Positions 15,244 through 16,180 of a DNA stretch of 64,000 nucleotides are shown one piece after another (position 1 is the stretch's first letter; each line of letters opens with the position of its first letter). Source of the DNA: a virus (lineage: Duplodnaviria > Heunggongvirae > Uroviricota > Caudoviricetes); IMG/VR virus record IMGVR_UViG_3300029702_000002; one strand, 5' to 3'. Under the pieces are notes generated by a model, which was given only the letters and a program-made list of their open reading frames with translations, did no database searches and was not told the DNA's origin. Position numbers and translations under genes: made by a program.

Positions 15244-16152
15244 ATGATTGGTAAGTTGTCTGATTCTTTGATTGAAAATAAATACAACGAATTTAGAGAA
15301 GAAATATCTTTACTTTTTGACTATTTAAATCAGATAAATGATACAACAAAGAAAAATATAAAACGTCTTCTTAAAGAAGTGGAGTATGCACAAAATCCAG
15401 ATACTATTATTAATATTAATGAAACTATTAAGATTAAGTGTGGCACAACGTTAGCTCGCCATTTATGTTCAAACCCATATACAGGTTCAACATTAGAGAT
15501 AGGTAACAGCGCCATTGATTTAGAAGAAAAGATAAGATTGTGTAATACTTTGAAAAATAAACAATATCAGTGGGTTATTACTGAAGCCTATGAGTTACTG
15601 GAAGACTATATTGAGGCAATATATGTCTATACTGTATGTGTTCGAAATGATTTATGGTCCTCAAGTGATTTTGGTAAGGTTGAAGATGATGAAATTGGGA
15701 AAAGGGAAGTTTATTACAGATTATTAAAAGCAAAAAGTAACCCATCGAAAAAAATAACTAAAATTTTCAGAAATAAAATACCTGGCTTCAAAGAGATAGA
15801 AACAAACAACAAGATTGGCAAAAACTATCGCTTTAACATCAAGCTAATTGAACTACTAAGACATACAATAGTACACAATAGTGGACGATTCAATGATACA
15901 GAAAAATTTATAAATAAGGTTTTAGATGAATCTGAAATAAACGGTAAGAAAAGAGTTATTGGAGAAAGAGCTGTTAGAAGTTACATTACTAAAGTGCAAG
16001 AAGATGATATTGTGATGCTCTTAGAAAGACCATCTGAAATTTTAGGTTCTTTTGGTGGGTATTTTAACAGAGCAAAATTTTTACTAAGTGATATTTTAGA
16101 ATACTCACTAATCATTAAAGAAGAACTAAAATCATATCTAGGCAATCATTAA
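15244..16152 (+). CDS. HEPN-motif protein, Abi-like accessory gene (putative RNase)
   Basis: 302 aa; strongly AT-rich codon usage; R-x4-H motif in ELLRHTIVHNSG; plus-strand island next to the tRNA cluster with its own terminator. Confidence 0.5.
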   Translation: MIGKLSDSLIENKYNEFREEISLLFDYLNQINDTTKKNIKRLLKEVEYAQNPDTIININETIKIKCGTTLARHLCSNPYTGSTLEIGNSAIDLEEKIRLCNTLKNKQYQWVITEAYELLEDYIEAIYVYTVCVRNDLWSSSDFGKVEDDEIGKREVYYRLLKAKSNPSKKITKIFRNKIPGFKEIETNNKIGKNYRFNIKLIELLRHTIVHNSGRFNDTEKFINKVLDESEINGKKRVIGERAVRSYITKVQEDDIVMLLERPSEILGSFGGYFNRAKFLLSDILEYSLIIKEELKSYLGNH

Positions 16153-16155
16153 CAA

Positions 16156-16180
16156 AAAAGGGGCCGAAGCCCCTTTGGAT
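16156..16180. terminator. bidirectional rho-independent terminator
   Basis: aggggccgaagcccct hairpin; the minus-strand version is followed by TTTTTTTG (ends the tRNA transcript); the plus-strand version by ttggatttt (ends the HEPN-like gene). Confidence 0.6.

Follow-up and report, generated by a model that had tools for sequence, protein, structure and literature searches.

A swappable single-gene cassette of an SSU5-type phage-plasmid encodes a stand-alone protein very likely belonging to a new HEPN family

Gene organization of the locus

The sequence analysed here, called the window below, is a 64-kb stretch of phage DNA whose genes include those for DNA polymerase III alpha, a CobT-like protein, an integrase, a ligase, a primase and a DnaB-like helicase, followed downstream by long structural ORFs. 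Near-identical counterparts are non-mobilizable E. coli plasmids of ~108–113 kb, 'Escherichia phage CMS-2020a' and phage Cyrano, and sequence comparison identifies the source element as a phage-plasmid of the pECOH89/SSU5 type; pECOH89 has been described as an SSU5-like phage-like plasmid (PMC3999498). The gene under study encodes a protein of 302 amino acids and lies between grxA and a cluster of tRNA genes. The features of the locus are as follows.

14825–15070, minus strand: grxA (glutaredoxin), one neighbour of the 302-aa gene
15071–15243, plus strand: 173-nt leader, the non-coding 5′ part of the cassette, with neither an ORF nor tandem repeats
15142–15114 and 15254–15227, minus strand: divergent promoter-like sites for grxA found by promoter scan, within or overlapping the leader
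15177–15182 and 15200–15205, plus strand: candidate sigma-70 promoter, TTGAAG-17 nt-TACAGT, read from the sequence
15234–15238, plus strand: Shine-Dalgarno sequence AGAGG, 5 nt 5′ of the ATG, read from the sequence
15244–16152, plus strand: the 302-aa ORF, with ATG start and TAA stop included
16157–16176: G+C-rich hairpin GGGGC-CGAA-GCCCC, a terminator that the gene has in common with the minus-strand tRNA operon
16331–16783, minus strand: tRNA-Ser(tga), tRNA-Thr(tgt) and tRNA-Asn(gtt), the other neighbour of the 302-aa gene

The first-pass annotation had described the gene as conspicuously AT-rich and as lying on the opposite strand, and both descriptions hold. With a GC content of 0.29 (whole window, 0.463) and a GC3 of 0.225 (backbone ORFs, 0.462), it is lower in GC than any other 909-nt stretch of the 64 kb. 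Relative to the backbone proteins the encoded protein is enriched in Ile (11.3 versus 5.7%), Lys (10.3 versus 6.3%) and Asn (8.3 versus 4.9%). The gene is read from the plus strand, whereas grxA and the tRNA genes are read from the minus strand.

The candidate promoter matches at 8 of 12 positions, which places it under the threshold of the promoter scan. At the other end of the gene, the hairpin at 16157–16176 is flanked by an A6 tract on one side and by TTTGGATTTT on the other. A terminator acting in both directions had been suggested here; the hairpin and the minus-strand call stand, and the plus-strand T tract is weaker and was not flagged by the scan, which scored the hairpin only as a minus-strand terminator. 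Bidirectional action, judged from the sequence, is thus plausible and only half demonstrated. The end of the feature at 16180, as first given, takes in this terminator; the ORF itself ends at 16152. A 20-nt inverted repeat (16251–16270 and 16309–16328), with 90% complementarity and a 38-nt loop, is located between the terminator and tRNA-Ser.

Variation of the cassette among phage-plasmids

The 302-aa gene is a swappable single-gene cassette, which fills an accessory slot with grxA on one side and the tRNA cluster on the other. Phage Cyrano has no 302-aa gene, and its homology to the window stops at 15070, the start of grxA, and restarts at 16153, the first base past the stop codon; the cassette, 15071–16152, holds one ORF only and no tandem repeats. 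The terminator hairpin is kept in Cyrano at 96.8% identity and, because the homology restarts directly after the stop codon, it is part of the backbone rather than of the cassette. When the window is aligned with L052, a backbone with a 56%-identical allele, the flanks are 97–98.6% identical and identity drops to 76% over the block 14844–16439, which comprises grxA, the 302-aa gene and tRNA-Ser.

The protein, named 'hypothetical protein' in RefSeq, recurs at 100 or 99.7% identity in phage CMS-2020a and 23 plasmid records. At the same locus, proteins of 56–59% (E. coli, E. marmotae), 43% (Citrobacter) and 38–40% (Klebsiella) identity are found in addition to those of 100 and 99.7%, and all of the same-locus alleles have a GC content of 29–32% in backbones of 45–47%. 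Among 5,426 complete E. coli genomes the backbone ligase gene is present in 246 (~4.5%), of which 30 (~12%) carry the 302-aa gene family, 19 with the allele of the window and 11 with an allele of ~70% nucleotide identity; in these 30 genomes the gene is plasmid-borne every time and chromosomal never. The space between grxA and the tRNAs is usually taken by a minus-strand gene of the Gp49 family (PF13876), which is not a known defence system, and there is thus no support for regarding this slot as a recognised defence hotspot.

A palindrome with perfect arms, CAATGATTCCATAC-ATAGTAG-GTATGGAATCATTG (14-7-14), occupies positions 13908–13942, ~100 bp upstream of the tyrosine integrase gene (12706–13809, minus strand). 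It is conserved at 91–94% in Klebsiella and Citrobacter backbones, as compared to ~73–75% identity of the flanks, and a variable cargo region starts at 13944, immediately past it. In its sequence the palindrome looks like a recombinase core site (lox/dif-like), and it may define the place of cargo exchange. The window carries an extra cargo of ~0.9 kb at 13944–14843 that is missing from pECOH89, L052 and Cyrano, with two ORFs for which searches of Pfam and PADLOC gave no match.

14060–14596, plus strand: 178-aa ORF, found in 34 plasmid records, mostly of phage-plasmid size
14487–14798, plus strand: 103-aa ORF, overlapping the 178-aa ORF

tRNA cluster

The proximity of the gene to the tRNA cluster, to which attention had been drawn earlier, is real in this element and does not extend to the relatives of the gene. 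Of 40 distant homologue loci only 4 have any tRNA gene within 8 kb, none of them adjacent, and among the backbones the tRNA sets vary independently of the 302-aa gene (Ser/Thr/Asn, Ser/Thr/Tyr/Asn, Ser/Asn, or Asn alone). Since tRNAs are seldom near distant relatives and their repertoire is independent of the gene, we regard the tRNA neighbourhood as incidental. A coupling in which a nuclease would be accompanied by resistant or replacement tRNAs was rejected, there being neither adjacency in the distant loci nor co-variation of the repertoire.

The cluster itself is polymorphic (16631–16783; compared in L051–L054). In pECOH89 and three further backbones tRNA-Thr is separated from tRNA-Asn by a tRNA-Tyr(gta), which is absent from the window and from Cyrano, and the Klebsiella and Citrobacter versions retain just Ser and Asn or Asn. 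The spacer of ~213 nt between tRNA-Ser and tRNA-Thr is an insertion, because only 8 nt separate the two tRNAs in Cyrano. In this spacer lies a near-threshold Rfam match to the sRNA STnc100 (16395–16563, minus strand; 44.1 bits, gathering score 47; E 1e-7).

Protein family and sequence conservation

The protein matches PHROG 35492 over its full length (E 3e-211). This is the same family, catalogued from phage genomes and carried there without functional annotation; what is added here is a fold and motif assignment and a wider bacterial family of 312 clusters. The latter comes from an exhaustive HMMER search of 1.84 billion representatives (clusters at 50% identity), which gave 312 clusters at E ≤ 1e-3 and 197 at E ≤ 1e-10, nearly all of them stand-alone proteins of 280–320 aa. 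A word-indexed homologue search returned 8–9 matches, just the phage-plasmid alleles and one distant protein; it was nearly blind to the family, the width of which is revealed by the exhaustive search alone. In the literature library that was searched, no paper names the 302-aa protein or gives it a function.

In species-representative genomes, 43 homologue loci were found in Gamma-, Beta-, Epsilon- and Deltaproteobacteria, Bacteroidota, Spirochaetota, Nitrospira, Aminicenantes and others. Relatives are also encoded by 14 IMG/VR viral contigs, three of them SSU5-like; in 5 of the 11 others the gene is located ~1.5 kb or less from the contig end.

We aligned 130 homologues (alignment A2, mean column identity 29%). 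Three residues only, E117, R206 and H211, are invariant (130/130); H207 and V210 are each kept in 129 of the 130, the exception at 207 being N. Near-invariant positions are N105, W110, Y116, E120 (117/130), Y127, W138, R176, E186, N189 and G214, and conservation is weak across residues 1–92. Most of the conserved positions fall into two blocks, the second of which, E-x2-RH-x-IVH-x2-G, spans residues 203–214.

15556–15606, plus strand: conserved block 1, N-x-QYQW-LL-x-EAYE-x-FED, residues 105–121, with E117 at nt 15592–15594, as defined by conservation in A2
15859–15876, plus strand: R206-H-T-I-V-H211 (R-x4-H) of block 2, as defined by conservation and lying in the predicted helix 195–212

The sequence RHTIVH, which the first-pass annotation had matched to the minimal motif of HEPN RNases, is thus present at residues 206–211 and is the sole Rx4-6H in the protein. 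It should be noted that a protein of such composition is expected to contain ~0.2 (Rx4H) to ~0.6 (Rx4-6H) such motifs by chance, so the presence of the motif alone is little evidence.

Predicted structure and probable assignment to the HEPN superfamily

The AlphaFold2 model built with A2 has a pLDDT of 94, ~98 around both conserved blocks, and a pTM of 0.90. Its elements are helix 2–50, a beta-hairpin at 69–91, helix 93–133, short helices within 140–187, helix 195–212, helices within 219–245, a small hairpin at 248–257 and helix 276–301. The core of the model is a four-helix up-down bundle that superposes on solved HEPN domains, and HEPN domains take ranks 1, 2, 5, 6, 7, 16, 19, 21, 34 and 56 among its structural matches. 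These include AF0298 (score 7.6), the HepN toxin SO_3166 (7.4), TT1696 (7.3), 4nqf, a 'HEPN domain protein' (7.3), the HEPN toxin 8xdj (6.8), TTHA0636/1wwp (6.7), the sacsin HEPN (6.7), AbiA (6.5) and YggD (6.2).

The published structural definition of HEPN asks for the motif at the end of helix-3, N, D or H directly after the conserved R, a conserved acidic residue in helix-2 and a variable insert between helices 2 and 3 (PMC3710099). In the family the residue after R206 is H or N in 130 of 130 members, and in the model R206–H211 sits at the C-terminal end of helix 195–212 (DSSP) and is followed by a turn at G214, which fits this definition. The invariant E117 and E120 (117/130) lie in helix 93–133, in a form other than the typical E-x3-[KR], and the short helices of residues 134–194 form an insert between helix 93–133 and helix 195–212. 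The whole protein appears in the model to be one elaborated HEPN domain. Judging from secondary structure only, helix 2–50 would be an extended helix-1 with the hairpin at its tip, helices 93–133, 195–212 and 276–301 would be helix-2, helix-3 and helix-4, and residues 213–275 would form a second insert.

Sequence-profile searches give no such picture. The query has no significant match in Pfam, NCBIfam or PADLOC, and the same holds for all 130 members against Pfam and PADLOC and for the family consensus and eight distant members against Pfam. With PADLOC v2, whose models cover Abi families, PD-T4/T7/Lambda, HEC and PDC candidates and ApeA, no family was reached at E ≤ 10 for the query. HMM searches of the PDB with two family profiles and the core consensus gave no match to solved HEPN proteins, and Foldseek against PDB and BFVD gave generic long-helix matches only. 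Below the significance threshold, the profile matches that recur among the query and the members are to HEPN models only: DUF3644 in four members and the query, over residues 182–223 and spanning the motif, PF05168 in one member, Csx1/Csm6 in two and Cas13d in three. DUF3644, which is classed as HEPN (PMC3710099), forms the catalytic domain in the product of the defence gene HEC-08.

The HEPN fold that had been suspected from the motif is therefore backed by the predicted structure, whose best matches are HEPN domains, and not by significant profile matches. The alternative is a helical-bundle protein outside the superfamily, whose E, R and H would serve ligand or nucleotide binding, regulation or some other catalysis, the likeness being convergent or a generic four-helix artefact. 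The Foldseek result and the lack of an HMM match to solved HEPN proteins speak against the HEPN assignment; we nevertheless consider such a protein unlikely. We hold it likely that the protein has a HEPN fold and is catalytically competent, and its family is very likely a new one in the HEPN superfamily. It is a previously unannotated family, one that fits HEPN by its predicted fold and the placing of its active-site motif and fails every existing family model.

Genomic neighbourhood of homologues and defence context

In 40 homologue loci, 144 proteins are encoded within two genes of the family member, and no Pfam family occurs among them more than three times; as no neighbour family recurs beyond this, we conclude that the gene has no partner gene. 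A two-gene toxin–antitoxin system, or one with an MNT partner, was rejected, since the cassette is a single ORF without a conserved neighbour or a recurrent NTase. A repeat search of positions 14800–16700 (minimum score 30) gave no tandem repeats and short direct repeats at chance level only, which rules out a type III RNA-antitoxin array of the AbiF kind.

These data also bear on the possibility that the HEPN RNase is an addiction toxin that stabilises the plasmid-prophage and is held by an unrecognised antitoxin, which could be an RNA (small or antisense), the product of a tiny ORF or a protein made from another part of the element. The closest structural matches are HepT-like toxins of type VII toxin–antitoxin systems (5yep, 8xdj, 1jog), the gene is situated in a maintenance/accessory region beside the integrase, the Klebsiella and Citrobacter versions of this region also bear the toxin YafO, and AbiF-type HEPN toxins are described in the literature as using RNA antitoxins. 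Against this, the 40 loci show no MNT/nucleotidyltransferase or other conserved neighbour, the cassette offers a single ORF with its 173-nt leader and no tandem repeats or arrays, ~88% of the backbones are stable without the gene, and most members of the family are borne on chromosomes or prophages, a setting in which addiction is less meaningful. We therefore hold addiction to be quite improbable.

Most neighbours of the homologues are unrelated, many being ordinary metabolic genes, and defence genes are found near some only. In Roseateles saccharophilus the family member has a full-length Gabija GajA (L043, 1986–3941; E 8e-239) two genes upstream, the member in another locus is adjoined by a 1,961-aa protein (L041, 7211–13093) in which mad3/mad8-like ABC-ATPase modules are repeated, and an LmuB-like ATPase is encoded near a Pseudomonas member. 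Other neighbours are AAA_21/OLD-type ATPases, integrases, Bro-N, P2 GpR and an Eco57I methylase.

Three further ORFs of the window match defence or restriction models.

26423–27190, plus strand in a minus-strand backbone: PD-T4-3-like 255-aa ORF, PADLOC E 1.3e-23, residues 11–231 against 11–238 of a 256-position profile
60888–62447, plus strand: 519-aa ORF with regions like PbeA and a type IV methyl-directed REase helicase, E 1e-22
3468–4448, plus strand: 326-aa ORF matching the restriction-endonuclease-like N-terminal domain model Aga_REase-PNTD, E 2e-10

In view of the PD-T4-3 match, the element already bears at least one recognised off-strand defence gene. Defence surveys recognise few systems on SSU5/pECOH89-type phage-plasmids; a survey of E. 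coli elements of the SSU5 group lists PD-T4-3, PD-T7-5, PrrC and RM systems and nothing like the 302-aa gene, and elements of this group bear anti-defence genes such as Rad. Three phages gained 10–100 fold in EOP when an SSU5-like Klebsiella plasmid was cured, an effect that its authors ascribed by inference to an RM system and did not resolve to any gene.

Proposed function

Taken as a whole, the best explanation of these data, and one that we advance with moderate confidence, is a stand-alone expanded HEPN endoribonuclease encoded by an autonomously transcribed cassette, expressed in lysogens and acting in abortive infection or superinfection exclusion. The autonomy of the cassette is counted from its opposite strand, its own ribosome-binding site and terminator, and the lack of a partner, of tRNA linkage and of a repeat array. 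The defence role is counted from the defence genes near some homologues, the PD-T4-3-like gene in the same window, carriage by viruses and the Klebsiella curing effect.

According to this model, the protein would be made from the plasmid-prophage in lysogens and would dimerise like other HEPN RNases, the two R-x4-H motifs forming a metal-independent RNase site assisted by E117. It would be held inactive by its own elaborations, namely the variable N-terminal long helix with the beta-hairpin and the inserts 134–194 and 213–275, and silencing would require no separate antitoxin. Infection by another phage or mobile element would trigger cleavage of tRNA or mRNA, which would arrest the cell and exclude the competitor, by abortive infection or superinfection exclusion. 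Considering fold, motif and context together, the 302-aa protein is probably a toxic RNA-cutting effector directed against competing phages, and its role in abortive infection or exclusion is one that we infer and find plausible.

A nuclease serving instead as a weapon of lytic growth or entry, by shut-off of host RNA or by degradation of cyclic oligonucleotides as counter-defence and with the lysogen left unprotected, would suit the presence of the family in several unrelated viral contigs, the depletion of cyclic oligoadenylate signals by some HEPN enzymes (literature) and the anti-defence genes such as Rad of the SSU5 group, but it is very improbable, given that the gene has a terminator of its own and is read against the structural and replication operons, the layout typical of a lysogen-expressed moron, that most homologues are in bacterial chromosomes, some beside defence systems, and that alleles which diverge steeply within one fixed slot are more characteristic of immune effectors.

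A bolder version of the lysogen-expressed effector, which we offer tentatively and regard as rather doubtful, is a class of self-contained single-domain HEPN immune effectors in which sensing, autoinhibition and catalysis would share one domain, an antitoxin, a known kind of accessory domain and a partner gene would all be dispensed with, and rapidly swapped alleles in a fixed slot (100, 57, 43 and 38% identity) would exclude rival phages or plasmids from the host.

Significance and comparison with known systems

SSU5/pECOH89-type phage-plasmids are common in clinical Enterobacteriaceae and spread CTX-M-15 and other resistance genes. If the proposed reading is true, a HEPN family of 312 clusters that is invisible to Pfam, NCBIfam and PADLOC would enlarge the catalogue of single-gene immune or toxin effectors, and it would be a defence family missed by PADLOC and, by report, by DefenseFinder surveys of SSU5 elements. 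It could also help to explain plasmid-dependent phage resistance such as that seen with the Klebsiella SSU5-like plasmid, and would provide a compact model for the silencing and triggering of a bare HEPN domain. Mobile elements are well known to carry HEPN effectors, and since such roles are already familiar from the superfamily, the gain in concept is a moderate one, unless the trigger or the autoinhibition proves unusual. The predicted architecture, a single elaborated domain without a partner, is unusual.

The type VII HepT toxins (SO_3166, HI0074, 8xdj; of the DUF86/PF05168 type) have ~130 aa, as compared to 302 aa here. The 302-aa protein differs from them in its 50-residue N-terminal helix, its beta-hairpin and two large inserts, has no detectable sequence similarity to them, and is not accompanied by an adjacent MntA antitoxin in any of the 40 loci.

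AbiD/AbiF (Abi_2), AbiJ, AbiU2, AbiV, HEC-08 (DUF3644), ApeA and DARNA/PD-T7-3 are likewise one-gene systems with a HEPN Rx4-6H motif. Such single-protein effectors are found on mobile elements or in defence islands and act in abortive infection by cleavage of RNA, often tRNA, without a separate protein antitoxin; no Pfam or PADLOC model of any of them reaches significance with the 302-aa protein. The protein described here is unlike DARNA, whose 456 aa combine a HEPN domain at the N-terminus with a Pds5-like C-domain, unlike ApeA, which assembles into ligand-gated rings, and unlike HEC-08, which bears zinc fingers at its C-terminus. Identity with DARNA/PD-T7-3, ApeA, HEC-08, PD-T4-2 or the Abi families was ruled out by model matches and architecture.

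In its genetic setting the gene is closest to the morons of temperate phages. It differs from defence morons in that the alternative occupant of its slot is a Gp49-family gene, which is not a known defence system. With the morons of P2/P4 hotspots and with PD-T4-3 on the same element it shares off-strand orientation, a promoter (here a candidate one) and a terminator of its own and low GC; like them, it is present in some genomes and absent from others, with one allele replacing another at a fixed position flanked by conserved genes.
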